From Candidatus Omnitrophota bacterium (GTDB lineage Bacteria > Omnitrophota > Gorgyraeia > Aquiviventales > JACQRC01), in contig JACQRC010000044.1 in the NCBI GenBank assembly GCA_016206665.1, positions 1 to 61,428 on the forward strand: a stretch of 61,428 nucleotides of DNA. Reading direction: 5' to 3'. The notes beneath the pieces were generated by a model. The model was given only the letters and a program-made list of their open reading frames with translations, did not search any database and was not told the DNA's origin. Of the stretch, positions 11,130 through 29,332 are shown in pieces (positions within the stretch are counted from its first letter, which is position 1; each line of letters starts with the position of its first letter). Both the position numbers and the translations under genes were made by a program.

Positions 11130-11599
11130 TGCGCCTCATTCGTACGCTCCTGCTGGCGACCACCCTGCTCGTCCTCGCGGGAGCGATGCGCAGCCGGTGG
11201 ACCCTTGGCGGCCTGGGACCCGATCCGGTCTCCATCGCCGTGGTGCTCGTGGCGTTGCGCCTCGGCTTCTGGGGCGGGGCGGTGGCCGGCGGCTTCGCAG
11301 GCTGGTGGATCGGTCTCTGGACGCCGTTCGTCGTCTGGCAGCCGTATGTGGCCATGGGTCTGGGCGGGGCGGTCATCGGGGGCATGACGCGCTGGCTCTA
11401 CCGTGATGCCATCTCCACGGCGTGGGTGGCCAGCCTCGGATTGGTGGCGCTGAACGGCGCGATGGCGGCCGCGAGTTGGCCGACAGACGTGACCGTCCGG
11501 GGAACGCAGCTGTGGCTGCAGGCGATGCTGCCATCCGGTGTGGCGACCGCGGTCGTCGCCTCGCTCGGCGTGCTGTGGGCGCGGGAACCGCAACGATGA
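11126..11599 (+). CDS. mreD: MreD-like membrane protein
   Basis: Hydrophobic, PD motif after first TM, ATGA-coupled between mreC and mrdA; divergent. Confidence 0.7.
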   Translation: MMRLIRTLLLATTLLVLAGAMRSRWTLGGLGPDPVSIAVVLVALRLGFWGGAVAGGFAGWWIGLWTPFVVWQPYVAMGLGGAVIGGMTRWLYRDAISTAWVASLGLVALNGAMAAASWPTDVTVRGTQLWLQAMLPSGVATAVVASLGVLWAREPQR

Positions 11600-13380
11600 G
11601 CCCTGCGTCGTCCGCGCCTGAACGCCGGTTGGCGCACCTGCGCTGGCTCGCGGGCGCCGCGATCGTGGCGCTGGGGCTCGCCTTGTTCCGCATGCAGGTC
11701 TGGCAGGGCCGGACCTATCGTCGGCTGGCGGACGCCAACCGCATCCGGCTCATCCCCTGGGAAGCGCCGCGCGGCCGCCTGCTCGATCGTCAGGGAGCCG
11801 TCCTGGCCGCGCACCGCACGGTGTATGACGTGGCGGTGATTCCCCAGGAAGTCGACGATCTCACCGCGACGCTGCGCGCCCTTGGCCGCCTGCTCGATCG
11901 TCCCGAGAGCGCGCTGCGGCGCAGTCTGCAGGCGCGCCGCACGTACCCGTTTGTCCCGGCGGTCGTCGCCGAAGACATCGGCGTGCACCAGGCGATTCGG
12001 TTGGAGGAGCAACGGTCGCACTATCCCGGCCTCATCGTGCGGCCCCGCATGGTGCGCAGTTATCCGCACGGCGATCTCGCCGCGCACGTGTTGGGGTACA
12101 TCGGCCCCATCGACCGCGAGGAGCTATCGCGGCTGCGTCCGTATGGCTACCGATTGCGTGACTGGGTGGGCAAGATGGGGGTTGAACGGCGCTACGACGG
12201 GCGGCTCCGCGGCACGCCGGGCGGCATCATGGTGGAGGTGGATCACCAGGGCCGCCAGGTTCGGACGCTGGGCGAGCGGCCACCCCAGCCTGGGCAGGAT
12301 GTGCAGCTGACGATCGACTTGGAGTGGCAGCGGCAGGTGGAGGGCCTGCTCGGCGAGCAGAAGGGGGCCTGCGTCGTCATCGATCCCAACACCGGCGAGA
12401 TCCTGGCGATGGCCAGCCATCCGGCCTTTCTCCCGGAAGATTTTGTGACCGGCACGCCGGGTGCGCGCCAGCGGTGGCTCAAGGACACGGCGTCGGTCCT
12501 GGTGAATCGGTCGGTGAGTGCCGCCTACACGCCAGGGTCGATCTTCAAGCTGGTGACCGCCACGGCGGCGCTGGTCCGGCGCGCCGTCTCCGCCGCGGAT
12601 CAGGTGGCCTGCCCGGGTTTTGTCCGGGTGGGGTCGCAGACCTACCACTGCTGGAATCTGGATGGTCATGGTCCGGAGTCGCTGCGCGAGGCGCTGCGGG
12701 ATTCCTGCAACGTCTACTTCATTCATGCCGGCCGACAGGCGGGAGCGGAGGCGCTTGCCGACTGGGCGGGGCGGTTCGGCCTCGGGCATCCGACCGGCAT
12801 CGAACTGATGGAGGAGACCACCGGCCACGTGCCACGGCCAGGCCGGGTGACGGCGCGCCGCCGCGGCACCTGGTTTGAAGGCGAGACCGCCAACCTGGCC
12901 ATCGGGCAGGGTGCGCTCTTGATGACGCCGTTGCAGGGGGCGGTCATGGTCTCGGCCATGGCCAATGGCGGTCGCATCATCCATCCCCATGTCGTCGTCC
13001 GGGTCGGGACGGACGCGCCTCAGGCGTCGAGCTCCCGCCGCCTGTTCGTGCCGTCCCAGATATTGGCGACGGTGCAGGAGGGGATGCGCCGTGTGGTCAA
13101 TGATCCGCAGGGCACAGGATATCGCGCCCATCTGGAGGGCGTCGTCATGGCGGCCAAGACGGGCACCGCGCAGACTCAGATCGCCGGGCGGCCCCATGGC
13201 TGGTTTGTCGGGTTTCTGCCCGCCGATCATCCGCAGATCGCCTTCGCGATTCTGCTGGAGCACGGGGGCTCCGGCGGCGCGCTGCCGGCCGAGATGGCCC
13301 ATCAGTTAGCGCTGCACTGGCAAAGCCGCAGCCTCGGGGCCGCGGCGTCCACGGCGATCGCGCAAGCCACCGCGCCATGA
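11596..13380 (+). CDS. mrdA: Penicillin-binding protein 2
   Basis: APRGRLLDR, RSYPHG, PGSIFK (SxxK), SCN (SxN), KTGTAQ; start at ATG 11596 overlapping the mreD stop. Confidence 0.95.
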   Translation: MSPASSAPERRLAHLRWLAGAAIVALGLALFRMQVWQGRTYRRLADANRIRLIPWEAPRGRLLDRQGAVLAAHRTVYDVAVIPQEVDDLTATLRALGRLLDRPESALRRSLQARRTYPFVPAVVAEDIGVHQAIRLEEQRSHYPGLIVRPRMVRSYPHGDLAAHVLGYIGPIDREELSRLRPYGYRLRDWVGKMGVERRYDGRLRGTPGGIMVEVDHQGRQVRTLGERPPQPGQDVQLTIDLEWQRQVEGLLGEQKGACVVIDPNTGEILAMASHPAFLPEDFVTGTPGARQRWLKDTASVLVNRSVSAAYTPGSIFKLVTATAALVRRAVSAADQVACPGFVRVGSQTYHCWNLDGHGPESLREALRDSCNVYFIHAGRQAGAEALADWAGRFGLGHPTGIELMEETTGHVPRPGRVTARRRGTWFEGETANLAIGQGALLMTPLQGAVMVSAMANGGRIIHPHVVVRVGTDAPQASSSRRLFVPSQILATVQEGMRRVVNDPQGTGYRAHLEGVVMAAKTGTAQTQIAGRPHGWFVGFLPADHPQIAFAILLEHGGSGGALPAEMAHQLALHWQSRSLGAAASTAIAQATAP

Positions 13381-14474
13381 CCATGAAGATGCGCCGTTGG
13401 CAGCTCCGGCTGACGCCACCTCATGTGATGGCCGCCGCGGTGTTGACCGTCATGGGGATTCTCAGCATTTACAGTGCCACGCATCAGGAGGGCTGGGAAC
13501 GCACGCTCCGGCAGCTCCTCTGGGCCGGGGTGGGCGCGGCCGTCTATCTGGGGATCACGCGCCTGAGTTACCTGCAGTGGCTGGACGGCGCCTATCTAGC
13601 GTACGGGCTGACGGTGACTCTGTTAGGTGCGGTGTTGTTGATCGGCGAGGCGCGGCTGGGCGCATCGCGGTGGCTGGAGGTGGGGGGCTTTTCCTTTCAA
13701 CCCACGGAGTTGGCCAAGATCGGCACGGCGCTCGCATTGGCGCGCCATCTGGGAGAGGCGATGAGCCGCTCCGCGCACCTGCGCTGGCCGACGGTCCTCA
13801 AGGCGCTGGCCTTGTGCGGGGTGCCTGCCGGCATTGTCTTTGCGCAGCCGGATTTGGGCAGCGCCACCGTCTTCATCGTGATGGCACTGGCGGCTCTGTG
13901 GGTGGCTGGTCTCTCCCGCCGGCAGGCGCTGACCATGGCCGCCCTGGCCGGCGCAATCCTGCCGATCGGCTGGCGGCATCTTAAGGGCTACCAGCGGGAC
14001 CGCCTGCTGGTCTTCCTGAATCCGAACCTCGATCCGCTGGGCGCCGGCTACACCATCATCCAGTCCAAGATCGCGGTCGGCTCAGGATGGTGGTGGGGCC
14101 GGGGCTGGCTCGGGGGCAGCCAGAACCAGCTCAACTTTCTGCCGGAGCGCCATACCGATTTCATCTTCTCGGTCATCGGCGAGGCGTGGGGTTTTGCGGG
14201 CAGCCTCGTCGTCCTGGGGTGTCTGGCCTGGCTGTTGACGGCGGCGGTGACGATCGCCCGGGACAACCACGAACCCTCGGGGCGGATTCTGGCGGCGACG
14301 CTCTGCGCGGTACTGGGCTATCAGTCGCTGGTCAACGTGGGCATGACCATCGGTCTGCTGCCTGTCGTGGGGCTGCCGCTGCCCCTGGTCAGTTACGGCG
14401 GCTCGGCGCTGGTGATGGCTTGGGCGGCGTTGGCGCTGTTGACGAACATCAGCGTCCACGGGACGCGGTTTTGA
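13377..14474 (+). CDS. rodA: Rod shape-determining protein RodA (SEDS family)
   Basis: GASRW, FQPTELAK, QPDLG, FLPERHTDFIFS, LPLVSYGGS. Confidence 0.95.
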   Translation: MTMKMRRWQLRLTPPHVMAAAVLTVMGILSIYSATHQEGWERTLRQLLWAGVGAAVYLGITRLSYLQWLDGAYLAYGLTVTLLGAVLLIGEARLGASRWLEVGGFSFQPTELAKIGTALALARHLGEAMSRSAHLRWPTVLKALALCGVPAGIVFAQPDLGSATVFIVMALAALWVAGLSRRQALTMAALAGAILPIGWRHLKGYQRDRLLVFLNPNLDPLGAGYTIIQSKIAVGSGWWWGRGWLGGSQNQLNFLPERHTDFIFSVIGEAWGFAGSLVVLGCLAWLLTAAVTIARDNHEPSGRILAATLCAVLGYQSLVNVGMTIGLLPVVGLPLPLVSYGGSALVMAWAALALLTNISVHGTRF

Positions 14475-14551: not shown

Positions 14552-14580
14552 TTGATGTTTTCGCGATCCGGTGATATACT
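14552..14580 (+). promoter_or_regulatory. sigma70-type promoter of the pilus operon leader
   Basis: TTGATG-17 nt-TATACT with an extended -10 TG. Confidence 0.6.
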
Positions 14581-14589
14581 TAATTCGAC

Positions 14590-14670
14590 ATTGATCCTTC
14601 GACTCGTTTCACTCGCTCAGGATCAATCCTGAGCGAGTCCCGCCGGAGGCGGGATGAGTCGAAGGATTGA
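14590..14670. repeat. Family A palindromic element, copy 2
   Basis: ATTGA-TCC-TTCGACT...CGCTCAG-GATCAATCC-TGAGCG...GAGTCGAA-GG-ATTGA; flanking ATTGA direct repeat. Confidence 0.88.
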
Positions 14671-14679
14671 CAATTGAGA

Positions 14680-14831
14680 TGTTTGAAAAAGGCTAACCTC
14701 CGCCACAGTGCGTGGCGGACCTCGCCCGCCAGCGAAGCTGGCGAGGCGGGGCGCTGTAAAGCGGGGGCGCAAAGTTCCAGCTCCACATCCAGGCGTGTCT
14801 GCCTGGGCGTGGGGGGCTGAACTGCCAAACA
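14680..14831 (+). promoter_or_regulatory. Cyclic di-GMP-I (GEMM) riboswitch aptamer with a 53-nt insertion in P2
   Basis: P1 TGTTTG/CAAACA; GGCTAACC...CGCT-GTAA-AGCG-GG-GGCGCAAAG; P3 GTTCCAGCTCC...GGGGGGCTGAAC-TGCC. Confidence 0.8.
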
Positions 14832-14853
14832 CCGACGGTGATCAAACCCGTTG

Positions 14854-14888
14854 ACACGCCCCATCGCTTACGCTGATGGGGCGTTTTC
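14854..14888 (+). terminator. Terminator hairpin, likely riboswitch expression platform
   Basis: ACGCCCCATC-loop-GATGGGGCGT-TTTC between the aptamer and ATG 14908. Confidence 0.65.
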
Positions 14889-14907
14889 ATTGGCATGCAG
14901 AGCGCAC

Positions 14908-15186
14908 ATGAATAACCACGATCGCGAGAAAGACAACGCCGCGCGGCGATCCCACCGGGTCATCGCCGCGCTGAACCGCGAGCAGGTCGACTTCCTCGAC
15001 AAGTTGGGGAAGGACGCCCTCTTCTCCAGCGGCGTCAAACTCTCCCGCACCGAAATCCTGTCCGCCATGGTCGATATCCTCAGGAAACTTCGCGTGAGCG
15101 GTGAGGGCTTGGCCTCCCGCGACGGCCTGGAAGAGCGCATCTTGGCTGCCATGAAACAATCGAAGGGGGGGAAGCTTCATGAGTAA
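14908..15186 (+). CDS. Small ribbon-helix-helix-like protein
   Basis: HRVIAAL strand, REQVDFLDKLGKD helix, LSRTEILSAMVDIL helix; first gene after the riboswitch. Confidence 0.6.
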   Translation: MNNHDREKDNAARRSHRVIAALNREQVDFLDKLGKDALFSSGVKLSRTEILSAMVDILRKLRVSGEGLASRDGLEERILAAMKQSKGGKLHE

Positions 15187-16663
15187 GTGGCTGAAGAATC
15201 TCTCGCTCGGCCCGCGCGGTCTGACCTATAAGCGGGCCATCGTCTTCTGCCTGATGTCAGGCTTCCCGCTCCTGGTCATGGTCCTGCTGGCCGGGCTCTA
15301 CATCTATCCCTACACCGACTGGCTCAAGCCGATCTTTCCCATTGCCCAGGATCCGATGGCTTCGATCAAGTGGGTGACCCTGGTCATCGTCCTGACCATG
15401 GTGGTCTCCCTGGTGGGCTGGGTGGTCTTCATGGAGATCATCGCGCCCATCATCACGATTGCCCGGGAAACGGAGATCATCGCCAAGGGGCACATCGAGC
15501 GCGACGTCACGGTCAAGCGTGAGGATGAGATCGGCGATCTCTCGGCTGCCATCAACACGATGACCAGCCGGATCCGCAGCAACATGGAGGAGCTCAAGCA
15601 GTTCGGCGACCGGACCAAGGAGCTGAATCTCGACATCCACAAGAAGATCCTGGCCCTGTCCAATCTGCTCCAGGTGGGCAATCTCATCAGCCAGAAGACC
15701 CCGATGGATGAGCTCATGCCGTTCGCCGTCCAGAAGCTCTATCAGATTAACGAAGACGACATCATCGCCCTGCTGCTCATGCAGCCGGATGCCGAGCATG
15801 GTCAGCCGGAGCTGATCGTGCGGGCCACGGCCGGCTGCCCGGACCGTCAGACGTTGATTCTGCAGTCCCTGGTGACGGCGCCGCTCTTCCGGCAGGCGGT
15901 GCAGAGCCAGACGGTGCAGCTCATCGACCAGGCCCATCCGGCCGCCGAGGCGGAGAGCGCCTCGGTGCTCGAGCGGCTGGGGTGCACCAACCTGGTGTTG
16001 ATTCCCGTGACGGTCAAGGGCAAATGCTTCGGGCTGTTCGTTTGCCTGAACACGCTGGCCCAACGCGCCTTCCAGGATGATTACCTGGAGGTGGTCAAGG
16101 TCTTTGCGAAGCAGGTAGCCATTGCCTCCGAGCACGATTTCCTGGTCAAGAAGGCCGAGGCGCTGACGGTCATCGATGAGCTGACCGGCCTCTACAACCA
16201 CAAATACCTTCGCCATCAGCTCAACGAGGAGATCAAGCGGTCGATGCGCTATCAGCGGCCCTGCGCCCTCGTCATCTTTGACATCGACGAGTTTGGTACG
16301 CTTGGCAGCGCTCCGGTGAATGCCGAGGAGCGGCAGGCGGCCCTCAAAGGGCTCGGAGCCCTCCTCAGGCAGCGCCTCAGCGATATCGATCGCGCGGCTC
16401 GGTTGGACGATGACACGCTGGCCGTGATTCTGCCGGACCGCAACAAGCGGGAGGCCACGCAGGAGGCCGAGGAGCTGCGGAAGGAGATCGAGGCGTTGCC
16501 GATCAACACCGGCATCTTTCGGTCGAAGAAGCGCCTCACGGTGTCGGCGGGCGTGTCGGAGAATCCCATTGATGGGTCGACCGCGGACGCCCTCCTGGAG
16601 AAGGCGGGCGGCGCCTTGCGCACCGCGAAATCATTGGGCAAGAACCGCGTCATGGTGGCTTAA
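15179..16663 (+). CDS. Membrane HAMP-GAF-GGDEF protein with degenerate active site
   Basis: Two TM helices, REDEIGDLSAAINTM HAMP, DELTGLYN, DIDEFG, ARLDDDTL in place of GGDEF, TVSAGV, AKSLGKNRV. Confidence 0.88.
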   Translation: MSKWLKNLSLGPRGLTYKRAIVFCLMSGFPLLVMVLLAGLYIYPYTDWLKPIFPIAQDPMASIKWVTLVIVLTMVVSLVGWVVFMEIIAPIITIARETEIIAKGHIERDVTVKREDEIGDLSAAINTMTSRIRSNMEELKQFGDRTKELNLDIHKKILALSNLLQVGNLISQKTPMDELMPFAVQKLYQINEDDIIALLLMQPDAEHGQPELIVRATAGCPDRQTLILQSLVTAPLFRQAVQSQTVQLIDQAHPAAEAESASVLERLGCTNLVLIPVTVKGKCFGLFVCLNTLAQRAFQDDYLEVVKVFAKQVAIASEHDFLVKKAEALTVIDELTGLYNHKYLRHQLNEEIKRSMRYQRPCALVIFDIDEFGTLGSAPVNAEERQAALKGLGALLRQRLSDIDRAARLDDDTLAVILPDRNKREATQEAEELRKEIEALPINTGIFRSKKRLTVSAGVSENPIDGSTADALLEKAGGALRTAKSLGKNRVMVA

Positions 16664-16676
16664 GGAGGATCCGTCA

Positions 16677-17756
16677 ATGACCCAGGCTTCATTGAATCTC
16701 TCGTTGGAGTCGTTGCTGCACCTGATGATTGAAAAGGGGGCGTCGGACCTGCACAACACGGCCGGCTCGCCGCCGCACCTGCGCGTCGACAACGAACTGG
16801 TGCCGGTCGGCGATGGGGGCTTGAGCCCCGAGCAGACGCGGACTCTGACTTACCAGGCGATCAACGAGACGCAGCAGAAGCGGTTTGAGGAGGCCCTGGA
16901 GCTGGATTTCGCCTTCGGGATCGCGGGGTTGTCCCGGTTCCGCGGCAACTGCTTTGTCCAGCGGGGCGCGGTGGGCCTGGCGATCCGGGCGATTCCCTAC
17001 CAGATCCGGAACTTCGCCGAGTGCGGGTTGCCGGAGAAGGTCGTCATCGAGTTCTGCCGCAAGCCGCGGGGCCTGGTGCTGGTGACCGGCGCGACAGGCT
17101 CCGGCAAGTCGACGAGTCTCGCCTCCATGATCAACTGGATCAACCAGGAGCGGACCGCCCACATCGTGACGATCGAAGATCCGGTCGAGTACACCTTTCG
17201 CAACCAAAAGGCGCTCATCGACCAGCGCGAGGTCGGCAGCGACACGCGCTCCTTTGAGCAGGGCCTGCGCCATGTGCTCCGCCAGGACCCCAACGTCATT
17301 CTCATCGGTGAGATGCGTGACCTGGAGACCGTCGAGGCCGCCCTGAACATCGCCGAGACCGGGCACCTGGTGTTTGCGACGCTGCACACCTCGGACAGCG
17401 TCCAGACCATCAACCGGATCATCGACGTCTTTCCGAGCCACCGGCAGCCCCAGGTGCGGACCCAGCTCTCCTTCGTATTGCTGGGCGTGCTCTGCCAACA
17501 GCTGATTCCCAAGGTCAAGGGCGGCCGGGTGCTGGCCTGTGAGGTGATGGTCGCGAACCACGCGGTGCGCAGCCTGGTGCGCGAATCGAAGGCCCACCAG
17601 ATGTACTCCATCATCCAGACGGGCCAGAAGGAAGGGATGCGCACGATGAACCAGTCGCTCTACGAGCTGTACACCAAGAACACGATCAGCTTGGATGAGG
17701 CCTTGTCCCGCACCACGGAAGTGGAAGATCTGGAACGGATGATCATGCACAAGTAG
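16677..17756 (+). CDS. pilT: Type IV pilus retraction ATPase
   Basis: GASDLH, GATGSGKST, TIEDPVE, LRQDPNVILIGEMRD, AETGHLVFATLHT, AVRSLVRE (AIRNLIRE-like); AAGGAGG RBS before ATG 16677. Confidence 0.95.
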   Translation: MTQASLNLSLESLLHLMIEKGASDLHNTAGSPPHLRVDNELVPVGDGGLSPEQTRTLTYQAINETQQKRFEEALELDFAFGIAGLSRFRGNCFVQRGAVGLAIRAIPYQIRNFAECGLPEKVVIEFCRKPRGLVLVTGATGSGKSTSLASMINWINQERTAHIVTIEDPVEYTFRNQKALIDQREVGSDTRSFEQGLRHVLRQDPNVILIGEMRDLETVEAALNIAETGHLVFATLHTSDSVQTINRIIDVFPSHRQPQVRTQLSFVLLGVLCQQLIPKVKGGRVLACEVMVANHAVRSLVRESKAHQMYSIIQTGQKEGMRTMNQSLYELYTKNTISLDEALSRTTEVEDLERMIMHK

Positions 17757-17784
17757 GACCGCGAGGCTAACGATCAGGTTCAGC

Positions 17785-17860
17785 CATGATGCTTCGATTC
17801 GGCCACTGCGGTGGCCTCACTCAGCATCATGATGAGCGAGCGAAGCGAGTCGAATCATGA
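17785..17860. repeat. Family A palindromic element, copy 3
   Basis: CATGA-TGC-TTCGATT...CACTCAG-CATCATGA-TGAGCG...GAGTCGAAT-CATGA; CATGA direct repeat. Confidence 0.88.
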
Positions 17861-18303
17861 CGTTTAAACGGCAACCCATCAAACAGCTCGGCGAGCTCTT
17901 GCTCTCGATGGCGCTCATCACCCGCGAGCAGCTCGAGCAGGCGCTGGCCCTCCAAAAGACCAAGGGAGGCCTGTTGGGCCAGATCCTGGTCGACCTGGGC
18001 TACGTGACGGAGGATCAGATCGCGCAGTCCCTGACCGCCCAGTACGGCTTTCCCTACCTGCCGCTGCGCAACTATGAGGTCGACGCCGAAGTGCTGAAAC
18101 TGATTCCCGAGAACGTGGCCAAGCAGTACTGTTTGATTCCGGTGGATCTGATCGGCCAGACGATCACCATCGCGATGGCGAATCCGCTCAACACCCAGGC
18201 GATCGAGGACGTGGAGCTGATGACCAAGTGCAAGGTGCAGGCCTTTGTCAGCACGGCCTCGGATGTGAACGGGGCCATCGTGAAGTACTATAACGGAAAA
18301 TAG
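17857..18303 (+). CDS. Stand-alone MshEN / T2SSE_N domain protein (candidate c-di-GMP receptor)
   Basis: KQLGELLLSMALITREQLEQALALQ-5 aa-LLGQILVDLGYVTEDQIAQSLTAQ tandem motif, IAMANP; no ATPase domain. Confidence 0.85.
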   Translation: MTFKRQPIKQLGELLLSMALITREQLEQALALQKTKGGLLGQILVDLGYVTEDQIAQSLTAQYGFPYLPLRNYEVDAEVLKLIPENVAKQYCLIPVDLIGQTITIAMANPLNTQAIEDVELMTKCKVQAFVSTASDVNGAIVKYYNGK

Positions 18304-18305
18304 CC

Positions 18306-20102
18306 ATGGCGCAACTCCTCCTGAAAAAGCGGCTCACGGAGATCCTAATTGAGCATCAGCTGCTGACGCAGGTCCAGCTGGACGAGGCGCTCGTCCAGCA
18401 GCGCGCCAGCGGCGGCCGGCTGCGGGACATTCTGATCCAGCGCGGCTTCGTCCAGAAGGATCACCTGATGGGCATCCTCGGCCAGGCGCTGGGCATTCCG
18501 CCGATGAAACTCAGCCGCTACCAGATCGACACGGCGGTCGCCAAGCTCATCACCCGCAAGATGGCCGAGACCTACCAGATTTTGCCTGTCTCCAAGATGG
18601 GCAATACGCTGACCGTGGCGATGGCTGATCCGCTGAACGTCTTTGCGCTCGACGCGCTGCAGTCGCTCACGATGTACGATATCTCGCCCATCATCACGAC
18701 CGAAGAGGAGCTCAAGCACGCCCTCGAGCGCATCTATGGGGAGGCGCGGCGTCAGGCGATCGAGACGATCGTCGAGGACTTGACCAATCGGCCGTCCTCC
18801 GTCATGATGGCAGGCCCGGCCACCGAGGTCTCGAACGATCGCGCCGCGCTGCTGCGCTCGGCCCAAGATGCGCCCGTCGTGAAGATCACCAACCTGCTGG
18901 TCGCCGATTCGGTGACGCAGGGCGCCAGCGACGTGCTGATCGAGCCGTTCGAGAAGTCCATGCGCGTCCGGTACCGGATCGACGGCATGCTGCGCGAGAT
19001 CCAGGCGCCCCCCCTGTCCATGCATCAGGCGATCGTCACCCGCATCAAGGTCATCTCCACGCTGGACATCGCGGAGCACCGGCTGCCCCAGGATGGGCGG
19101 TTCAAACTAAACATCGGGGATCGGGTGGTCGATTTTCGCGTGTCGGTGTTGCCGTCCAGTTTTGGGGAGAAGGTCGCCCTGCGCATCCTGGACAAATCAC
19201 AAGCGACGCTCGACATCGACAAGCTGGGTTTCGAGAAGGCGACGGTGGACAAGCTCAAACAATGCGCGCTGCGGCCGCACGGCATGATTCTGATCACCGG
19301 GCCGACCGGCTCCGGCAAGACCACCACCCTCTATTCGATTCTGAAGTATGCCGATTCGCCCGACAAGAACATCGTCACCGTCGAGGATCCGGTCGAGTAC
19401 GAGCTGATGGGGATCAACCAGGTGGCGGTGCGCACGGAGATCGGCCTTACCTTCGCGTCGTCCTTGCGCTCGATTCTGCGGCAGGACCCGGATATCATCA
19501 TGGTCGGCGAGATCCGTGATTTCGAGACGGTCGACACCGCCATCAAGAGCGCGTTGACCGGACATTTGGTGCTCAGCACCCTGCACACCACCACGGCGGC
19601 CGGCTCCATCGTCCGGCTCACCAACATGGGGGTGGAGCCTTTCTTGATCACCGCCTCCATGATCGCCGTGGGGTCCCAGCGGCTGGTGCGCAAATTGTGC
19701 CTCAAGTGCCGGGAGGGGTACGAGCCATCGCGGGAACTGTTAGAGAAGGTGCATCTGCCGCAACTGCCGGCGCATACCGTCTTTTATCGTCCGAAGGGGT
19801 GCGACCACTGTTTCAAATCGGGCTACCACGGACGGGTCGGCCTGCTCGAAGTCCTCATGCTCACGCCGGGCGTTAAGGAGCTCGTGATGAAGCGCTCCCA
19901 GGAAAATGTCATCAAGCATCTGGCGCGGGAGGAGGGGATGCAGACCCTGCGGGAGGACGGCAGCCAAAAAGTGCTGCGCGGGGAGACCTCGCTCGAAGAG
20001 GTGCTCCGCGTCTCCGTCAGCGATCTGGAGACGGCCACCCCGGCCGCCGATCGTGATGGTGAGCGGAGTCCTGCCCGACGGCGGGGCGGAGTCGAACCAT
20101 GA
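18306..20102 (+). CDS. pilB: Type IV pilus extension ATPase (PilB/GspE family), paralog 1
   Basis: RLPQDGRF, GPTGSGKTT, TVEDPVEY, LRQDPDIIMVGEIRD, STLHT, CxxC..CxxC. Confidence 0.92.
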   Translation: MAQLLLKKRLTEILIEHQLLTQVQLDEALVQQRASGGRLRDILIQRGFVQKDHLMGILGQALGIPPMKLSRYQIDTAVAKLITRKMAETYQILPVSKMGNTLTVAMADPLNVFALDALQSLTMYDISPIITTEEELKHALERIYGEARRQAIETIVEDLTNRPSSVMMAGPATEVSNDRAALLRSAQDAPVVKITNLLVADSVTQGASDVLIEPFEKSMRVRYRIDGMLREIQAPPLSMHQAIVTRIKVISTLDIAEHRLPQDGRFKLNIGDRVVDFRVSVLPSSFGEKVALRILDKSQATLDIDKLGFEKATVDKLKQCALRPHGMILITGPTGSGKTTTLYSILKYADSPDKNIVTVEDPVEYELMGINQVAVRTEIGLTFASSLRSILRQDPDIIMVGEIRDFETVDTAIKSALTGHLVLSTLHTTTAAGSIVRLTNMGVEPFLITASMIAVGSQRLVRKLCLKCREGYEPSRELLEKVHLPQLPAHTVFYRPKGCDHCFKSGYHGRVGLLEVLMLTPGVKELVMKRSQENVIKHLAREEGMQTLREDGSQKVLRGETSLEEVLRVSVSDLETATPAADRDGERSPARRRGGVEP

Positions 20103-20176
20103 TGCTTCGATTCGTCCCGCCTGCGGCGGGACTCACTCAGCATCATGGTGAGCGACCGAAGGGAGTCGAACCATGA
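20054..20176. repeat. Family A half-copy inside the pilB1 3' end plus full copy 4 (20098-20176)
   Basis: ATGG-TGAGCG...GAGTCGAA-CCATGA then TGC-TTCGATT...CACTCAG-CATCATGG-TGAGCG...GAGTCGAAC-CATGA. Confidence 0.88.
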
Positions 20177-21909
20177 ATGAGTCCCTGAAGAAGCGCCTGT
20201 TGGAGCTCCTGAAGAAGCATCGGCTCGTCTCGTCCGAGGCCATGGAGCGGGCGTTGCAAATTCAGCGCGCGCAAGGTGGCAGCCTCAGCGAGATTCTCGT
20301 CAAGCAAGGCGTCGTCTCCTCCAAGGATCTGATGGGGCTGCTCAGCGCGGAGCTGAACATTCCGCCGATCAACCTGGGCAAGTGCACCCTGGACCCGGAG
20401 GTGGTGAAGCTCGTCCCCGAGCGCCTGGCGCGCCAATATCATGTCGTGCCCATCGCCAAACTGGGTCACACCCTGACCGTGGCCATGGCCGATCCCATGA
20501 ACATCTTCGCGCTCGACGACCTGAAGATGCTGACCAAGTTTGAGATCGACCCGGTCCTGGCGGCGGATGAGGACATCATGAAGACCCTCGGCGGCATCTA
20601 TGGTCAGGAACGCGAGGGGATGACCGCCCTCGTCGAAGAGCATGCCAGCGATGCCGAGGAGGATGCGGAGGGGCTGCCCGTCGCGGCGGTGTCGGAGGAC
20701 GAATCGGCGACCAATGTTGATCAGATCACCACGGAGTCGGCCCGGGCGCCCATCGTCAAGATGGTCGACCTGATGCTCGCGGAGGCGCTCAAGAAGCGGG
20801 CCTCCGACATCCATATCGAGCCCTACGAAACCCAGGTGCGCGTGCGGTACCGGGTCGACGGCAATCTCCAGGTGGCCTTCATCGTGCCCAAGAAAAACCA
20901 AAACGCCGTGCTGGCGCGCCTGAAGATCATGTCCCGGTTGGATATCACCGAAAACCGCCTGCCCCAGGACGGGCGGTTCAAGATCCATTTTGAAAACCGC
21001 GAGATCGATTTCCGGGTGTCGGCGCTGCCGGTCACGCATGGCAACAAGGTCGTCCTGCGGGCCCTCGACAAGCAAAACCTCTCGATGGGATTGGACAAGT
21101 TGGGGATGCTCCCGGAGCCGATCGCGCACTTCAAGGAGGCGGTCGCCCGGCCCTTCGGCATGATTTTAGTGACCGGTCCGACCGGCAGCGGCAAGTCCAC
21201 CACCCTCTATTCGGTTCTCAATCAGTTGAACTCCACGGAGCGCAACATCGTGACCATTGAGGATCCGGTGGAGTATCAATTGGAAGGCACCACGCAGATT
21301 CAGGTGCTGCCCGAGATCGGCCTCACCTTCGCCAACGGCCTGCGTTCCATTCTGCGCCAGACGCCGGACATCATCATGGTGGGGGAGATTCGTGACGGCG
21401 AGACCGCCGACATCGCGGTGAAGGCCTCCCTGACCGGCCAGCTCGTGTTGAGCACGCTGCACACCAATGACGCGCCCGGGGCGCTCACCCGGCTCGCGGA
21501 CATGGGGGTCGAGCCCTTTCTCATCGCCTCGAGTCTGATCATGGTGGCGGCCCAGCGCCTCACCCGGAAGATCTGCACGAACTGCCGGGAAGCCTATGAC
21601 GTGCCCAAGGACGTGTTGGAGCGCGTCGGATTCACGACGGCGATGCTCAAGCAGCCGCCCGCCTTCTTCCGCGCCAAGGGCTGCCTCAAATGCAACAAGA
21701 CCGGCTACCACGGACGCATGGGGACGCTCGAGACGCTCACCCTGGATGATAAAATTCGTGATATGCTGGTCGGAGGAGCCTCCAGCGATGAGATCAAAAC
21801 CTACGCCCGCGGCCAGGGGATGGAGACGCTGCGGGAAAATGCGCTCCGGCAGTTTGCGCTCGGGATGACGACGCTGGAGGAGGTCCTCCGCGTCACGGCG
21901 GAGGAGTGA
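20173..21909 (+). CDS. pilB: Type IV pilus extension ATPase (PilB/GspE family), paralog 2
   Basis: ASDIHIEP, RLPQDGRF, GPTGSGKST, LRQTPDIIMVGEIRD, STLHTNDA, CxxC..CxxC. Confidence 0.93.
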   Translation: MNESLKKRLLELLKKHRLVSSEAMERALQIQRAQGGSLSEILVKQGVVSSKDLMGLLSAELNIPPINLGKCTLDPEVVKLVPERLARQYHVVPIAKLGHTLTVAMADPMNIFALDDLKMLTKFEIDPVLAADEDIMKTLGGIYGQEREGMTALVEEHASDAEEDAEGLPVAAVSEDESATNVDQITTESARAPIVKMVDLMLAEALKKRASDIHIEPYETQVRVRYRVDGNLQVAFIVPKKNQNAVLARLKIMSRLDITENRLPQDGRFKIHFENREIDFRVSALPVTHGNKVVLRALDKQNLSMGLDKLGMLPEPIAHFKEAVARPFGMILVTGPTGSGKSTTLYSVLNQLNSTERNIVTIEDPVEYQLEGTTQIQVLPEIGLTFANGLRSILRQTPDIIMVGEIRDGETADIAVKASLTGQLVLSTLHTNDAPGALTRLADMGVEPFLIASSLIMVAAQRLTRKICTNCREAYDVPKDVLERVGFTTAMLKQPPAFFRAKGCLKCNKTGYHGRMGTLETLTLDDKIRDMLVGGASSDEIKTYARGQGMETLRENALRQFALGMTTLEEVLRVTAEE

Positions 21910-21913
21910 GACG

Positions 21914-23125
21914 ATGCCCACCTTCAAATATCTGGCCAAGGAACCGGACGGCAAGAGCATCACGGGACTGCTCGAATCGAAGAGCCAGGCCTCGGCCATC
22001 GAACAGCTGCGGGCCAAGCAGCTCATCATCATCTCGGTCGAGCAGGCGCGCGCCGGCGGCCTCAAGACCCGCGCCAAAGGCAAGCGGGTCAAGCTGGATG
22101 ATCTGGTCATCTTCTCGCGCCAGCTGGCGACCATGGTCGACAGCGGCATTCCGCTGGTGCAGGCCCTCGACATCCTCTACGAGCAGATGGAGAACAGGCA
22201 GTTTCGGGATGTGATTGGCAAGGCCCGGCAGGACATCGAAGCGGGCTCGAGCCTCTCCGAGGCCTTTGCCAAGCATCCGCGGATCTTCTCCGCCCTCTAT
22301 GTGAGCATGGTCAAGGCGGGCGAGACGAGCGGCCTGTTAGATGACATCCTGGATCGGCTGGCCGGCTATTTGGAGAAATCGAACGCCCTGCAGCGCAAGG
22401 TCAGATCCGCCATGGTCTACCCGGCCGTGGTCATCTCCATGGCGCTGCTGATCACCATGCTGTTAGTGCTGAAGGTCGTGCCGACCTTCAAAGGGATCTT
22501 CGACACCCTGGGCGGCCAGCTGCCGCTGCCCACACGGGTGCTCATCGGGATCAGCGATTTTCTGCGCCACTACTTCTTCATCTGGTTTGGGGGGGTGGTG
22601 TTAGGCGTGGGCGGCTTGATGCGTTTTGTGCGCACCGAACAGGGCAAGGGGCTCTACGACCGATTCATCCTCAAGGCCCCGGTCATTGGGAGCCTGGTCC
22701 AGAAGGTGTCGATCGCCAAATTCGCCCGCACGCTCGCGACCCTCGTGAAGAGCGGCGTGCCCATCATCGGCAGCTTGGACATCGTGGCCAAGACCTCCGG
22801 CAACCGGGTGGTCGAGAAGGCGCTCGTCGAGGTGCGCACCTACATCCGGGAAGGGGAGTCAATCGCGGAGCCGTTGTCCCGCTGCCCGGTTTTTCCGCCG
22901 ATGGTCGTCCGCATGATCGGCGTGGGCGAGCAGACGGGCGAGCTGGAAAAGATGCTCACCAAGATTGCCGATTTCTATGAGGAGCAGGTGGACGCGTCGG
23001 TCGCCGGATTGACCAGCATCCTGGAGCCGCTCATCATCGCCTTTTTGGGCGTGGTCATCGGCGGCATCGTCCTGGCCATGTTCATGCCCATCTTCAAGTT
23101 GACCACGATCGTCGGCGGACAGTAA
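21914..23125 (+). CDS. pilC: Type IV pilus platform protein (PilC/GspF)
   Basis: FSRQLATMVDSGIPL, AGETSG, AMVYP, LPLPT, GEQTGEL, LEPLII. Confidence 0.95.
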   Translation: MPTFKYLAKEPDGKSITGLLESKSQASAIEQLRAKQLIIISVEQARAGGLKTRAKGKRVKLDDLVIFSRQLATMVDSGIPLVQALDILYEQMENRQFRDVIGKARQDIEAGSSLSEAFAKHPRIFSALYVSMVKAGETSGLLDDILDRLAGYLEKSNALQRKVRSAMVYPAVVISMALLITMLLVLKVVPTFKGIFDTLGGQLPLPTRVLIGISDFLRHYFFIWFGGVVLGVGGLMRFVRTEQGKGLYDRFILKAPVIGSLVQKVSIAKFARTLATLVKSGVPIIGSLDIVAKTSGNRVVEKALVEVRTYIREGESIAEPLSRCPVFPPMVVRMIGVGEQTGELEKMLTKIADFYEEQVDASVAGLTSILEPLIIAFLGVVIGGIVLAMFMPIFKLTTIVGGQ

Positions 23126-23138
23126 ACCCTGATCCGCC

Positions 23139-23167
23139 TTGACGCGTGGGGTGGGGGGTGTTATACT
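23139..23167 (+). promoter_or_regulatory. sigma70-type promoter
   Basis: TTGACG-17 nt-TATACT with an extended -10 TG. Confidence 0.75.
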
Positions 23168-23185
23168 TGAAAGTGATAAGACAGT

Positions 23186-23297
23186 TGGCTCCCGTACCAA
23201 GGGCTAACCTCGAGCAATCGGGGGGCGCAAAGCCACAGACCCCACCGCTTTGCTTCGCAAAGCGAAGCAGTGGGGTGGCTGGGTTGCCGTTGAGCCA
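23186..23297 (+). promoter_or_regulatory. Cyclic di-GMP-I (GEMM) riboswitch aptamer
   Basis: P1 TGGCTC/GAGCCA; GGGCTAACC-TCGA-GCAA-TCGG-GG-GGCGCAAAGCCACAGACC...GGTGGCTGGGTTGCC matches the family consensus. Confidence 0.88.
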
Positions 23298-23307
23298 GAC
23301 GCACTCG

Positions 23308-23343
23308 ACGGCTACGGGAAACAGTCCCGTAGCCGATTTTGTT
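23308..23343 (+). terminator. Terminator hairpin, likely riboswitch expression platform
   Basis: CGGCTACGGGA-AACAG-TCCCGTAGCCG-ATTTTTGTT; competing GCCGTTGAG/CTCGACGGC helix overlaps both aptamer and terminator. Confidence 0.75.
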
Positions 23344-23355
23344 GGAGGCCGGAGC

Positions 23356-23868
23356 ATGATGCGTATGTCTCAGCGCCAGCGAAGGCGCACCCCCCATATG
23401 CTCGGCTTTTCATTGGCCGAGGTGGTGGTGACGATCGGCATCCTGGCCCTGGCGCTGAGCGGCATCATGGTGGCTTTTGTGGGGGCGGCCGCCTTGAACG
23501 AGGATTCCGAGATGTTGAGCAAGGCGCTCGATACAGGCATGGCGCAGATCGAAGCCACGCGCCTGGCCGCCATCAATAATTTCGGCGCCGTGGTGCCCGG
23601 GACGACCTTCTTTACCATCCCGGGGCCTGCCAGCGCGCCGAACGCCTATGCGGCGACGAGCCGGGGGGTGCTGACCGTGACCGCGGCTCCGGCGGGCAGC
23701 TTCTACTACGTCATCACCGCCAAGGTCTGCTGGCAGGGGCGGGCCGGTCGCAGCATGGGGGAGGACCGGAATCTCAACGGCACGCTGGATGGGGGCGAGG
23801 ATACGAACGGCGACGGCCAGCTCACTTGCCCGGTGGACCTGGTGACGACCGTGGCACGGAGAAACTGA
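23356..23868 (+). CDS. Minor pilin (PilV-like)
   Basis: GGAGG RBS; basic leader, G|FSLAEVVV prepilin motif; GEDRNLNGTLDGGEDTNGDG loop. Confidence 0.85.
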   Translation: MMRMSQRQRRRTPHMLGFSLAEVVVTIGILALALSGIMVAFVGAAALNEDSEMLSKALDTGMAQIEATRLAAINNFGAVVPGTTFFTIPGPASAPNAYAATSRGVLTVTAAPAGSFYYVITAKVCWQGRAGRSMGEDRNLNGTLDGGEDTNGDGQLTCPVDLVTTVARRN

Positions 23869-23905
23869 TAGCGCCACATCTTTTTTAAACATGTTAAGAA
23901 AGTCC

Positions 23906-23934
23906 TTGACAGGAAGAGCAATTTTCTGTAAATA
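23906..23934 (+). promoter_or_regulatory. Probable sigma70 promoter of the major pilin
   Basis: AT-rich upstream region, TTGACA-17 nt-TAAATA. Confidence 0.55.
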
Positions 23935-24162
23935 AGTAGCAGGAACGAAGAAAGTAAAGGGAAGGAGGTGGGAGCCGCACACCACACCGCCTGCGGCATC
24001 GGGTCGCAGCGCGCAGGACAACTGAAGTAGAAACCTTGAGCTGGAAGGCGGGAGCAGGCAGTCTGAAGCGTCATCCTCGTGCGTCTTATCCTTCAGAGGC
24101 ACCTGCTCCTGACACCGTAACATCCTTCAGCTCAACAGAATTAACCTAAGGAGGACTCATCC

Positions 24163-24678
24163 ATGTTGCGACGTAACCGCAAGGGCTTCACGCTGGTGGA
24201 GCTCATGATTGTGGTCGCGATCATTGCCTTGTTAGTCGCGATTGCCATTCCCAACCTGCTCCGCGCGCGTCTGAACGCCAACAGCTCGGCCGCCATCGGG
24301 ATGCTGCGCACTCTGCAGACCGCGATGGAGAGCTTCCGCGCAGCGCAGAATGCGCCGACCTACCCTGTGTTGGCTGCTGGAGCCATCGGGGCGGTCGGTA
24401 CCGCGCTCACGCTGCAGGGGGAACTACCGCCGTACGTGTCCGGATTTACCGTGGCGACCGCTGCGGCCGCTCCGTACGAGTGGGACCGTTCAGGGTATAC
24501 GTTTGGGTGTGCTGGCGCGTTGAACACCTACCAGTGCCGGGCGACGCCAACTGTGCAGGGCACGACCGGAGTTGACGCATACTGTGTTGATGAACAGGGC
24601 GTGATTATGGTCACCGTCAACGCGGCTCTCGGCGCTCCCGTCACGCCTGGAGCCTGCCCGGGTGTGCCGAAGCAATAA
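24163..24678 (+). CDS. pilA: Probable major type IV pilin
   Basis: TAAGGAGG RBS; RKG|FTLVELMIVVAIIALLVAIAIPN; four C-terminal Cys; own promoter. Confidence 0.8.
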   Translation: MLRRNRKGFTLVELMIVVAIIALLVAIAIPNLLRARLNANSSAAIGMLRTLQTAMESFRAAQNAPTYPVLAAGAIGAVGTALTLQGELPPYVSGFTVATAAAAPYEWDRSGYTFGCAGALNTYQCRATPTVQGTTGVDAYCVDEQGVIMVTVNAALGAPVTPGACPGVPKQ

Positions 24679-26402: not shown

Positions 26403-27581
26403 ATGGACGGAAAAGAGTTGGGCGCCAAGCACTCAGTGCATTCGACTTCGCTCAGCACTGACCCTGAGCGAGCGAAGCGAGTCGAAGGGTCAGCACTAAG
26501 CACTAAGAAGGCTGCGGAGCGCGGTATTGCGCTGGTGAGCGCCTATCTCGGGGCGATGATCCTGCTCGCGTCGGGCGCCGTCTTCATCACGCGCAGTGTC
26601 ACCGAGAGCCGGGCCGCCCTGCGCGCCCGCGATAGCGAGCAGGCCCTGCACTTGGCCGATGCGGCCGTGGCACGGACCGGCAAGGAGCTGGCCGCCAACT
26701 TCAATTGGAACAACGGCGGGGTGCCGCTCGTGGCGACGCTGGGGCCTGGGCAGTACGAGGTGCAATCAGTCGTGAACGGGCCGGGCGCCGATGAGCGCAC
26801 CGCCACCGTCGTGGGCTACATCCCCAACCGCGCGGCCCCCGAGCTGCAGCGCAAGGTGGAGGCGGTGGTGCGACAGCGCATCCCGCCGAACTTCTATGAC
26901 TACGCGCTCTACTCGGCTGGGGAGATCGACTTAAACGGCAACGCCTATGACGTGAACGGCGACATCATCGCCGGCGATCAGGACCCCATCACCAACACCG
27001 ACAACGTGTCGGGCACGATCACCACCGACCCGACCATCAGCCCGCTCGCCAAGCTGAGCTTCTCGCAGCTGTACGACTGGGCGGCGGCGCAGGGCCATGT
27101 CTACGACGCGGCCCGGCTGGCCAACGTCAAGACGACCGATCCGTTTCCGAGCTCCTTCTGGTGCGGCGGCGCGCAGGTGATTATTCCGCCGGCGCCTCCA
27201 GGATGCGAGGATCCGAGCAATCCGGGCGTTGCGATGCCGAATGTCGTGTATGTCACGACAGATCTGGCGCTCAACGGGAACATCGGGACGATCGGCGGGT
27301 TTTACGTGGTGGTCGGGGACGTCCTCTCGAATCCCAACGGCGACCCCAACGACACCACGATCAACGGCAACGGCCAGATTGACGGCGTCATCTACACGAC
27401 CGGGGAGTTCCGGGTCAACGGTGGCGCCGGCGGGCTGAATGTGGAGGGCGGCGTGTGGGCCGGCACACAAGCGCGCTTGAATGGCAATGCCACGGTGACG
27501 TATAATAGCACCTACATGGACGCCATCCAGGCCATGAACATCAACGCGTCCGTGCAACTGGTGCTGTGGCGCGAATTATAG
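26403..27581 (+). CDS. PilX-like tip pilin with Gly/Asn-rich C-terminal domain
   Basis: GGAG RBS before ATG 26403; ERG|IALV without Glu5, QALHLADAAV; repeated xNGN segments. Confidence 0.75.
   Translation: MDGKELGAKHSVHSTSLSTDPERAKRVEGSALSTKKAAERGIALVSAYLGAMILLASGAVFITRSVTESRAALRARDSEQALHLADAAVARTGKELAANFNWNNGGVPLVATLGPGQYEVQSVVNGPGADERTATVVGYIPNRAAPELQRKVEAVVRQRIPPNFYDYALYSAGEIDLNGNAYDVNGDIIAGDQDPITNTDNVSGTITTDPTISPLAKLSFSQLYDWAAAQGHVYDAARLANVKTTDPFPSSFWCGGAQVIIPPAPPGCEDPSNPGVAMPNVVYVTTDLALNGNIGTIGGFYVVVGDVLSNPNGDPNDTTINGNGQIDGVIYTTGEFRVNGGAGGLNVEGGVWAGTQARLNGNATVTYNSTYMDAIQAMNINASVQLVLWREL
26433..26493. repeat. Family A palindromic element, copy 5, in frame inside the PilX-like leader
   Basis: TCAG-TGCA-TTCGACTTCGCTCAG-CACTGACCC-TGAGCG...GAGTCGAA-GGG-TCAG; 57 nt between TCAG direct repeats. 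Confidence 0.88.
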
Positions 27582-29222: not shown

Positions 29223-29332
29223 CCCCACCACCTCCAGCCGCCCATCGCGCGTGTGTCGTCCGCCCTCCGGCGATGGGCGGACGACGGGTCGTCGCAGGGC
29301 CCGTACGGGCCCTGCTGGAGGTGGTGGGGTGA
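29220..29332. mobile_element. Family B MITE-like element, copy 1
   Basis: TGA-CCCCACCACCTCCAGC...GCTGGAGGTGGTGGGG-TGA terminal inverted repeats with a TGA direct repeat; internal hairpins. Confidence 0.75.

Follow-up and report, generated by a model that had tools for sequence, protein, structure and literature searches.

Here we describe a type IVa pilus locus of Candidatus Omnitrophota in which two class I riboswitches for cyclic di-GMP (c-di-GMP) stand before the pilus motor operon and before the pilin genes, and in which a small stand-alone MshEN protein is encoded next to the extension ATPases. The locus lies on a 61,428-nucleotide stretch of DNA (contig JACQRC010000044.1 of assembly GCA_016206665.1), which was analysed over its full length and is called the window throughout. 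We read it as a locus in which both riboswitches are OFF switches and the MshEN protein is a c-di-GMP sensor detached from its ATPase, and taken as a whole this reading is probably correct. All elements of the pilus region are on the + strand within 14552–23868, and they appear to form two units, each with its own promoter, its own class I c-di-GMP riboswitch and a self-contained intrinsic terminator. The first unit would be a single tightly packed operon that runs from a conserved 92-amino-acid protein through a membrane HAMP-GAF protein whose GGDEF domain is dead, PilT, the free MshEN protein, PilB1 and PilB2 to PilC. In the second, riboswitch 2 would control a pilin-like gene, probably with read-through onward into the pilin cluster. 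An initial annotation of the region, made from the sequence letters, had listed these elements, and every one of them was found where it had been placed, two labels excepted. Omnitrophota are abundant, uncultured and very small, and are thought to live attached to other cells or to prey on them. Pili are their most likely contact organs, and the locus gives a testable picture of how these may be controlled.

Riboswitch 2 (23186–23297 including the P1 strands TGGCTC/GAGCCA; 23192–23291 as matched by Rfam) scores 53.7 bits with the c-di-GMP-I family RF01051, against a gathering score of 35 and with an expectation value (E) of 1e-7 over the whole window. Its P2 tetraloop is GCAA. Riboswitch 1 (14675–14835) has an enlarged P2 and was located with R1, a lineage-specific covariance model whose seed consists of 14 other aptamers from this genome, with riboswitch 2 among them and riboswitch 1 left out. 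R1 finds riboswitch 1 with 38.3 bits (E 4.4e-9 in a search of the window plus 42 loci, 720 kb in all) and gives 63.9 bits to riboswitch 2, a member of its own seed. Throughout the 61-kb window these two were the only R1 matches at E ≤ 1.

To assess the RNA structure we aligned 33 pil-locus aptamers, both window RNAs included, drawn from 26 sources: the window and the loci of 25 relatives. Across P1, P2 and P3, 96% of the cells were paired and 17 of the 20 pairs changed on both sides, in an alignment that was fitted to the model, which favours this outcome; none of 500 shuffles scored as high, and slid registers were 26–47% paired. The bases that we take, from the numbering of the Vc2 structures, to contact the ligand were almost always kept: G20 in 33/33 aptamers, A47 in 32/33 and C92 in 31/33, with G, A and C in both window RNAs. 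The G21-C46 pair is flipped to C-G in ten aptamers, which among the rows listed are switch-2 orthologs, and 27 of the 33 have a plain four-nucleotide P2 loop. Specificity for cyclic GMP-AMP was considered and ruled out: position 20 is a G in all 33 aptamers, and a G rather than an A there presumably argues for c-di-GMP. From their sequence and covariation, then, both RNAs are class I c-di-GMP riboswitches, expected to bind that ligand. Their placement in the initial annotation, one before the motor operon and one before a pilin gene, proved to be conserved among relatives.

Of 40 relatives belonging to the same order or class, 33 have an ortholog of the free MshEN protein, with 48–63% identity and in open frames of about 150–190 amino acids. 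We compared these 33 loci, mapping genes by tblastn and RNAs by R1. Their common layout is PBP2, RodA, switch 1, the 92-amino-acid gene, the optional HAMP-GAF-GGDEF gene, PilT, MshEN, PilB1, PilB2, PilC, switch 2 and a pilin. Switch 1 precedes the 92-amino-acid gene in 25 loci (20 at E ≤ 0.001). In four of the remaining loci the upstream DNA is missing at a contig end, three belong to other families of the class and have neither the 92-amino-acid gene nor the RNA, and one (L042) has the gene without an RNA match. Switch 2 follows pilC in 16 of the 33 (11 at E ≤ 0.001), several other loci ending before that point. The 92-amino-acid gene itself is present in 26 loci and the GGDEF gene in ten. 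Three of the switch-1 orthologs (G005:C27, G031:C6 and G021:C49) score above Rfam's own cut-off. Farther away, a scan at the Rfam gathering threshold of ten distant Omnitrophota loci found no riboswitch in their pil loci, and eight loci of more distant Omnitrophota have the protein genes with neither a riboswitch nor the 92-amino-acid gene. As far as these sequences sample the phylum, the two-switch layout belongs to the window's order and not to the phylum. For the initial annotation, a gene order that is not conserved, together with RNAs and proteins that do not bind c-di-GMP, would have refuted its proposal; the order is conserved, and the proposal is not refuted on this count.

Both aptamers are followed by an intrinsic terminator. 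That of riboswitch 1 (14856–14892, hairpin 14856–14884) has an 11-bp stem followed by TTTCATT and a folding free energy (dG) of −20.8, and that of riboswitch 2 (23309–23343, hairpin 23309–23335) has an 11-bp stem followed by ATTTTGTT and a dG of −20.7. Between 14300 and 24300 there are 12 terminator-like sites versus 5.9 ± 2.6 in shuffles, the two best being those behind the two RNAs, and 5 promoter-like sites versus 2.0 ± 1.4. The motor operon has a candidate sigma-70-like promoter at 14552–14580 (TTGATG-17-TATACT, TG-extended; 9/12 consensus positions, a consensus match only), and the second unit has another at 23139–23167 (TTGACG-17-TATACT; 10/12).

The position of the terminators is equally regular in relatives. 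We examined 21 switch-1 loci, after dropping five with weak or mis-set matches. In 16 of the 21 (15 by script and one, L049, by eye) the terminator starts 3–21 nucleotides past the aptamer, and in all 11 switch-2 loci it starts 6–19 nucleotides past it. The remaining five switch-1 loci have no terminator; there, the start codon of the 92-amino-acid gene touches the 3′ edge of the aptamer, the usual layout of a translational OFF switch. Within the source genome, 12 riboswitches, both window RNAs among them, have separate terminators, an OFF-type geometry. At five others (four distinct) the 5′ arm of the terminator is the aptamer's own 3′ strand, an ON-type geometry (C81:29902; C95:1065, the same as C79:44; C51:2710; and C60:34704).

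We also paired aptamer strands with terminator halves in duplex tests, each against 300 shuffles. The 5′ strand of the aptamer complements the 5′ half of the terminator at 6 of 16 switch-1 loci, with at most 7/300 shuffles as good, and this pairing changes on both sides between loci, for instance GUGAAAAGG/CCUUUUCAC versus GUGAACAGGGC/GCCCGUUCAC. In the window's switch 2, the 5′ strand TCCCGTA pairs with TACGGGA of the terminator (9/300 shuffles as good), and in 7 of 10 switch-2 orthologs the 3′ strand of the aptamer complements the 3′ half of the terminator (at most 5/300). Because the terminators are separate, and because a strand that the aptamer needs can otherwise disable them, termination is predicted when c-di-GMP is bound. 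In that state the aptamer would keep its own strands, the terminator would form and transcription would stop; when c-di-GMP is absent, an aptamer strand would pair with a terminator arm and transcription would read through. On this model both switches are probably OFF, with some real room for doubt, and c-di-GMP would lower the transcription of the pilus genes.

The reverse polarity seems unlikely to us. Both riboswitches would then be ON switches and c-di-GMP would induce the pilus genes, as the class II riboswitch Cdi-2-4 does for pilA1 of Clostridioides difficile, and the RNAs would work in the same direction as an MshEN sensor activated by c-di-GMP. Such a scheme would fit with work on V. 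cholerae, M. xanthus and others in which c-di-GMP, by way of MshE and PilB, favours the assembly of pili (PMC11656802), and with the positive action of the pilA1 riboswitch (PMC6366702), and the window's switch 1, in which no clear anti-terminator is seen, leaves room for a three-state platform. It fits poorly with terminators that do not overlap their aptamers in a genome where the ON-type overlap exists at five other riboswitches. It is also at odds with the complementarity between aptamer strands and terminator arms, which exceeds chance in many orthologs, and with the five switch-1 orthologs in which a start codon sits at the aptamer edge.

The second part of our reading concerns the free MshEN protein. 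This 148-amino-acid stand-alone MshEN (GSPII) protein (17857–18303), a candidate c-di-GMP receptor, matches PF05157 with 72 bits and NF053729 with 66.3 bits (cut-off 38). Its whole length can be aligned with the PilF and PilB N-domains, and its residues 9–116 align to 5htl_A (E 7.5e-16). The published MshEN motif consists of two 24-residue stretches, (R/K/L)LGxx(LVI)(LVI)xxG(LVI)(LVI)xxxxLxxxLxxQ, with a five-residue spacer (PMC5013675, PMC11731258). The free protein keeps both Gly3 and both Gln24 residues in 34/34 genomes and has 16–20 of the 22 key positions; the window copy has 18, with the five-residue spacer. PilB1 (18306–20102) keeps Gly3 of both motifs in 0/34 genomes, and PilB2 (20173–21909) keeps no Gly3 in 28 of 32; in the window both ATPases have lost both key glycines. 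In V. cholerae MshE, substitutions of G11 and G40 abolish binding, and XpsE lost c-di-GMP binding with such glycine changes (PMC5013675), while a Leu or Lys in the first motif position is consistent with nanomolar affinity (PMC11731258). The claim in the initial annotation that the stand-alone MshEN provides a c-di-GMP input is thus borne out at the level of the residues needed for binding. PilB1 and PilB2 lack the two glycines that MshE needs for c-di-GMP, the small MshEN protein encoded just upstream of them retains both, and the free protein would act as the detached c-di-GMP sensor subunit of a two-ATPase extension motor.

Among MshEN-length proteins, more than 4000 clusters match the free protein at E ≤ 1e-10. 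Those with a name are listed as 'hypothetical protein' of Omnitrophota, apart from a few JGI rows that read 'type IV pilus assembly protein PilB'. The initial annotation had proposed complex predictions for MshEN and the GGDEF protein with PilB1, PilB2, PilT and PilC. The one run, MshEN with PilB1, gave an interface score (ipSAE) of 0.50 versus 0.00 for the best of three controls, a verdict of weak support; among 157 solved complexes 116 reach the mark used for this score, as do 2 of 215 mismatched pairs, and only 18 of the 157, along with both mismatches, reach it with a score of 0.60 or under. At least 85% of contacts are shared between the runs, and the pLDDT of the partners is at least 81. 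The model lends weak support to a contact between MshEN and PilB1, and the motif suggests that MshEN may bind c-di-GMP.

Could the free protein instead have a purely structural or assembly role in the PilB1/PilB2 motor and sense no c-di-GMP, so that the messenger acts through RNA only? The window copy, with its Gln at position 1 and an Ala at the position equivalent to Gly18, leans that way, as does the GSPII-A domain of T. thermophilus PilF, which is similar yet non-binding (PMC11731258). Nevertheless, the retention of both essential glycines and both terminal glutamines in 34/34 genomes, the NF053729 score of 66 bits against a cut-off of 38, and the near-perfect motif of most orthologs (16–20/22) make this a fairly improbable account, and a sensor subunit remains our preferred interpretation.

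Besides the model-fitted alignment mentioned above, several results weigh against the reading of two OFF switches and a detached sensor. The polarity of the switches is drawn from geometry and from an energy model that is ligand-free. For the window's switch 1, none of the four strand–terminator pairings was better than shuffles (143–280 of 300 as good), so that geometry and its orthologs are the basis for its polarity; with its terminator blocked, the best alternative structure adds only about 2.6 kcal/mol. In published work c-di-GMP is usually positive for MshE-type pili, and the C. difficile pilA1 switch is ON (PMC6366702). Most orthologs have Arg and Gly at positions 1 and 10 of motif I; the window's MshEN departs from the motif there, with Gln and Ala. 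With the curated, 53-residue model NF053729, PilB1 and PilB2 still score 44.0 and 38.1 bits against the cut-off of 38, so their loss of binding is deduced from two residues. The PilB1–MshEN score falls in the weak band, and the likeness to solved PilF and PilB structures may contribute to it. Finally, riboswitch 1 is the weakest member of the aptamer set and falls short of the Rfam cut-offs, with 29.2 bits for c-di-GMP-I-GGC (cut-off 59) and 23.6 bits for RF01051 (cut-off 35).

Riboswitch 1 misses these cut-offs because 63 nucleotides occupy the place of the P2 tetraloop hairpin. The insert forms three hairpins, the last with a GUAA loop, and G20, A47, C92, P1 and P3 are all intact around it. 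A CCGCCAC-N5-GTGGCGG hairpin within it has two copies in this genome, both inside aptamers. The three-hairpin form of P2, which starts with this hairpin and ends with a GNRA hairpin, has 15 matches in 11 of 41 genomes, two in the source genome (window 14700–14774; C78:907–970) and 13 in 10 relatives; the reversed pattern, used as a control, had no match in the 41 genomes. The matches listed mostly share the H-b hairpin and a CGCAAAG/CGGAAAG core. The enlarged P2 is a recurring aptamer form and not damage, and standard Rfam thresholds miss part of these riboswitches. An origin of the insert in a mobile element was also considered and ruled out, the CCGCCAC-N5-GTGGCGG hairpin occurring here only within aptamers (2/2).

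These observations bear on the idea that riboswitch 1 is a decaying relic, in which the P2 insert abolished sensing, the hairpin behind it became a constitutive attenuator, and only switch 2 and the proteins still respond. A score under both Rfam cut-offs, alternative pairings no better than shuffles and a repeat element that landed in the leader would all suit a relic. The insert is non-random, however, with its 15 occurrences in 11 of 41 genomes against none for the reversed pattern, both in-genome copies of its hairpin sit in aptamers, and G20, A47, C92, P1 and P3 are preserved, so we regard decay as quite unlikely.

The leader also carries a palindromic repeat between the promoter and the aptamer (14591–14670; fold −55.8 kcal/mol). 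About 13 partial copies of this palindrome, which is about 90 nucleotides long, occur in the genome, including window positions 20105–20140 in the pilB1–pilB2 spacer and 26448–26488, and 10 other contigs.

The second gene of the motor operon (15179–16663) encodes the membrane HAMP-GAF protein, with DDDTL in place of GGDEF and SDID in place of RxxD. Its orthologs have AGNEI, GGNEI, SGNEI and the like instead of GG(D/E)EF, and where the RxxD I-site would be, five residues before the motif, the window and the 16 listed orthologs of at least 380 amino acids have S/T-x-x-D. Judged by these motifs the GGDEF domain is dead as a cyclase. Nor would the protein, by its sequence, be a c-di-GMP receptor; a role in signal input or as a scaffold is more likely, and the initial annotation's use of the degenerate GGDEF as a c-di-GMP input is not upheld. 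That it nonetheless works on the motor as a c-di-GMP receptor, in the manner of PelD or FimX, is very improbable: some degenerate GGDEF domains do bind the messenger through the I-site (listed in PMC12448109), and the gene lies within the operon and occurs in distant Omnitrophota loci too, but the I-site Arg is lost in the window (SDID) and in the 16 listed orthologs (T/S-x-x-D), the GGDEF and DxFK motifs are gone, and the gene is found in just 10 of the 33 order or class loci.

The first gene after riboswitch 1 (14908–15186) encodes the 92-amino-acid protein, which is the most faithful companion of switch 1 and shows 48–60% identity over 24 aligned orthologs. It had been labelled RHH-like, a label that found no backing in any family or fold match. 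Profile searches of Pfam, NCBIfam and PDB gave no match. Its AlphaFold2 (AF2) monomer model is all-helical (pLDDT 71.7), with no Foldseek match in the pdb set at E ≤ 0.001 and generic helical hits only in the VIA wide search (best Z 5.2). In the ESM Atlas its matches are Omnitrophota hypothetical proteins only.

In relatives, switch 2 precedes the first, major-type pilin gene. In the window it is followed by a different gene (23356–23868), which encodes a pilin-like protein with a G|FSLAE motif, seen by eye, two cysteines and an Asp/Gly-rich loop. This open reading frame scores 13.1 bits with N_methyl, below the cut-off of 21.2, and has one relative at E ≤ 0.001 among 368 candidates; it is an orphan. 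In 8 of 11 relatives with enough sequence (L048, L053, L055, L060, L061, L065, L067 and L072), a GGAGGTG box lies 3′ of the switch-2 terminator and is followed by the first pilin gene. The window's GGAGGTG box (23964–23970) comes after the orphan gene, about 200 nucleotides before the major-type pilin, and the orphan therefore seems to have been inserted between switch 2 and its former target, as this comparison of sequences suggests. The leader of the major-type pilin (23869–24162) has no Rfam match at E ≤ 1 and no R1 match, and its fold is no better than shuffles (z −0.77). The label of minor pilin depends on a motif seen by eye and a sub-threshold N_methyl score and is not confirmed, and the tip-pilin role proposed for the orphan finds no support, the gene having a single relative and switch 2 standing, in relatives, before a major-type pilin. 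Between its two cysteines the orphan protein has an Asp/Gly/Asn-rich stretch, DRNLNGTLDGGEDTNGDGQ, which by eye looks like a calcium-binding loop.

Along the + strand of the window come PBP2 (11422–13380), RodA (13377–14474), the riboswitch-motor region, the pilin cluster, with the major-type pilin at 24163–24678 and further pilins up to 26308, and then pilM, pilN/O-like genes and the pilQ secretin (28146–32510). The PilT-family retraction ATPase (16674–17756) scores 467 bits with TIGR01420 (cut-off 319), PilM 235 bits with TIGR01175 (cut-off 133) and the PilC platform protein (21914–23125) 425 bits with its PilC/GspF model (cut-off 424). PilB1 (642 bits) and PilB2 (649 bits) are slightly below the equivalog cut-off of 675.65, as is PilQ (282.6 against 284.35). 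PilT, PilB1, PilB2 and PilC are ordinary members by family, and with PilT, PilB, PilC, pilins, PilM and the PilQ secretin at one locus the region is a complete type IVa pilus locus. PBP2 and RodA, proteins of cell-wall elongation, are encoded directly upstream of the pilus operon in the window and in most of the related loci for which upstream DNA is at hand. In two of the distant Omnitrophota loci, L001 (19186–19641) and L059, a second free MshEN gene (43% identity) is the immediate upstream neighbour of pilC, and pilB2 has two additional GGDEF genes behind it.

How does this arrangement compare with characterised systems? Cd1, before the flgB operon of C. difficile, is a class I switch with an intrinsic terminator at which c-di-GMP causes termination before a motility operon (PMC6366702). 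It resembles the switches described here in having a class I aptamer followed by an intrinsic terminator, but it is a single switch and controls flagella, whereas here two switches, of predicted polarity, frame a pilus motor operon and pilins. Cdi-2-4, before C. difficile pilA1, is a class II ON switch with read-through into the pilB genes (PMC6366702, PMC11656802). Like riboswitch 2 it is a c-di-GMP riboswitch before a type IV pilin gene; unlike the Omnitrophota locus it is class II and ON, belongs to a monoderm host, has no counterpart before the motor genes and is not accompanied by a detached MshEN.

In published accounts, MshEN domains are fused to pilus ATPases (PMC5013675, PMC11731258, PMC11656802). 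V. cholerae MshE (PDB 5HTL) has the same two 24-residue motifs and five-residue spacer as the free MshEN, yet there the domain is fused to the ATPase, whereas here it is a separate 148-amino-acid protein beside ATPases with motif-poor copies. T. thermophilus PilF, with three GSPII domains (PDB 6F8L, 8PDK), is the best solved match to the free MshEN (E 3.9e-48). PilF carries several GSPII domains per motor, only some of which bind c-di-GMP. At motif position 1, the residues are Lys and Leu in its GSPII-B domain (PMC11731258) and, comparably, Gln or Arg plus Leu in the Omnitrophota protein. In PilF all GSPII domains are in one ATPase chain; here three genes share them, and the ATPases are two paralogs. 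In Xanthomonas citri, the FimX-PilZ-PilB system also places a c-di-GMP receptor in trans on the extension ATPase (PMC8389850), but its receptor families are EAL and PilZ and it has no riboswitches.

A 2024 review of PilB cofactors, in the portion available, mentions neither a free MshEN subunit nor a riboswitch before motor genes. In the literature on Omnitrophota riboswitches, c-di-GMP and type IV pili, this wiring was not found described; the initial annotation had not recognised the arrangement from characterised systems, and for the literature searched that still holds. PilZ genes and GGDEF domains have been reported near Omnitrophota giant genes (preprint 10.1101/2023.11.21.568195). The parts of the locus are known; their wiring, conserved across the order, is new, no published description of it having been found. 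It couples c-di-GMP to type IV pili in two new ways, through riboswitch control of the motor genes themselves and through a sensor domain moved from the ATPase to a separate subunit. The polarity argument, the 92-amino-acid gene as a fixed partner of switch 1, the order-wide counts and the enlarged-P2 subclass are likewise new here.

The locus is part of a wider c-di-GMP network. The source genome, a 1.50-Mb assembly of 105 contigs that is 75.8% complete and in which the window is contig C20, is present in DNA runs that are groundwater metagenomes and, among the runs listed, in no RNA run. In its 1.5 Mb there are 21 RF01051 matches at E ≤ 1, 16 of them above the cut-off. All 41 genomes (the window's and 40 relatives) have the riboswitch, with 462 matches at E ≤ 0.001, 1–27 in each, or about 7 per Mb over the sum of the rounded genome sizes. 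The source genome encodes four intact GGEEF cyclases with RxxD, four HD_5 proteins and nine PilZ proteins, so the cell has a c-di-GMP signal; no EAL match was found in it. Genes behind the other riboswitches encode pilins, a subtilase, a metalloprotease, a transglutaminase-like protease, an RHS/YD protein, a 7TM-PAS-MASE1 sensor and large proteins of unknown family, and those at L026, L029, L032, L035 and L037 look like a surface or attack regulon.

Taken together, these data invite a broader and more tentative picture, which we hold to be possible but on balance doubtful. An order of ultra-small Omnitrophota would run its surface or attack apparatus through dense c-di-GMP-I riboswitches (about 7 per Mb, in 41/41 genomes). 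With OFF switches on the type IVa motor and pilins, and ON switches on some giant proteins and on pilin-like genes of the class-III-signal kind, one messenger would swap pilus systems. The circuit would be incoherent and give a pulse of pilus activity, as c-di-GMP would activate the detached MshEN yet shut off motor synthesis, and some of the riboswitches would belong to a three-hairpin-P2 subclass that Rfam thresholds miss.

Two other riboswitch loci of the source genome were noted in passing. The switch at C51:2710 precedes five small proteins with G/xxxxEY-like N-termini. An identification of these as Flp pilins was tried and rejected: of the four open reading frames scanned, one passes Class_IIIsignal (24.5 versus 23.7 bits) and none passes Flp_Fap. 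At C81:17837–22031, a riboswitch (33.6 bits) precedes a pilin-like gene and, after that, two genes for GGEEF/RxxD cyclases (domains at 19858–20340 and 21549–22031), an arrangement that could form a feedback loop on c-di-GMP synthesis.

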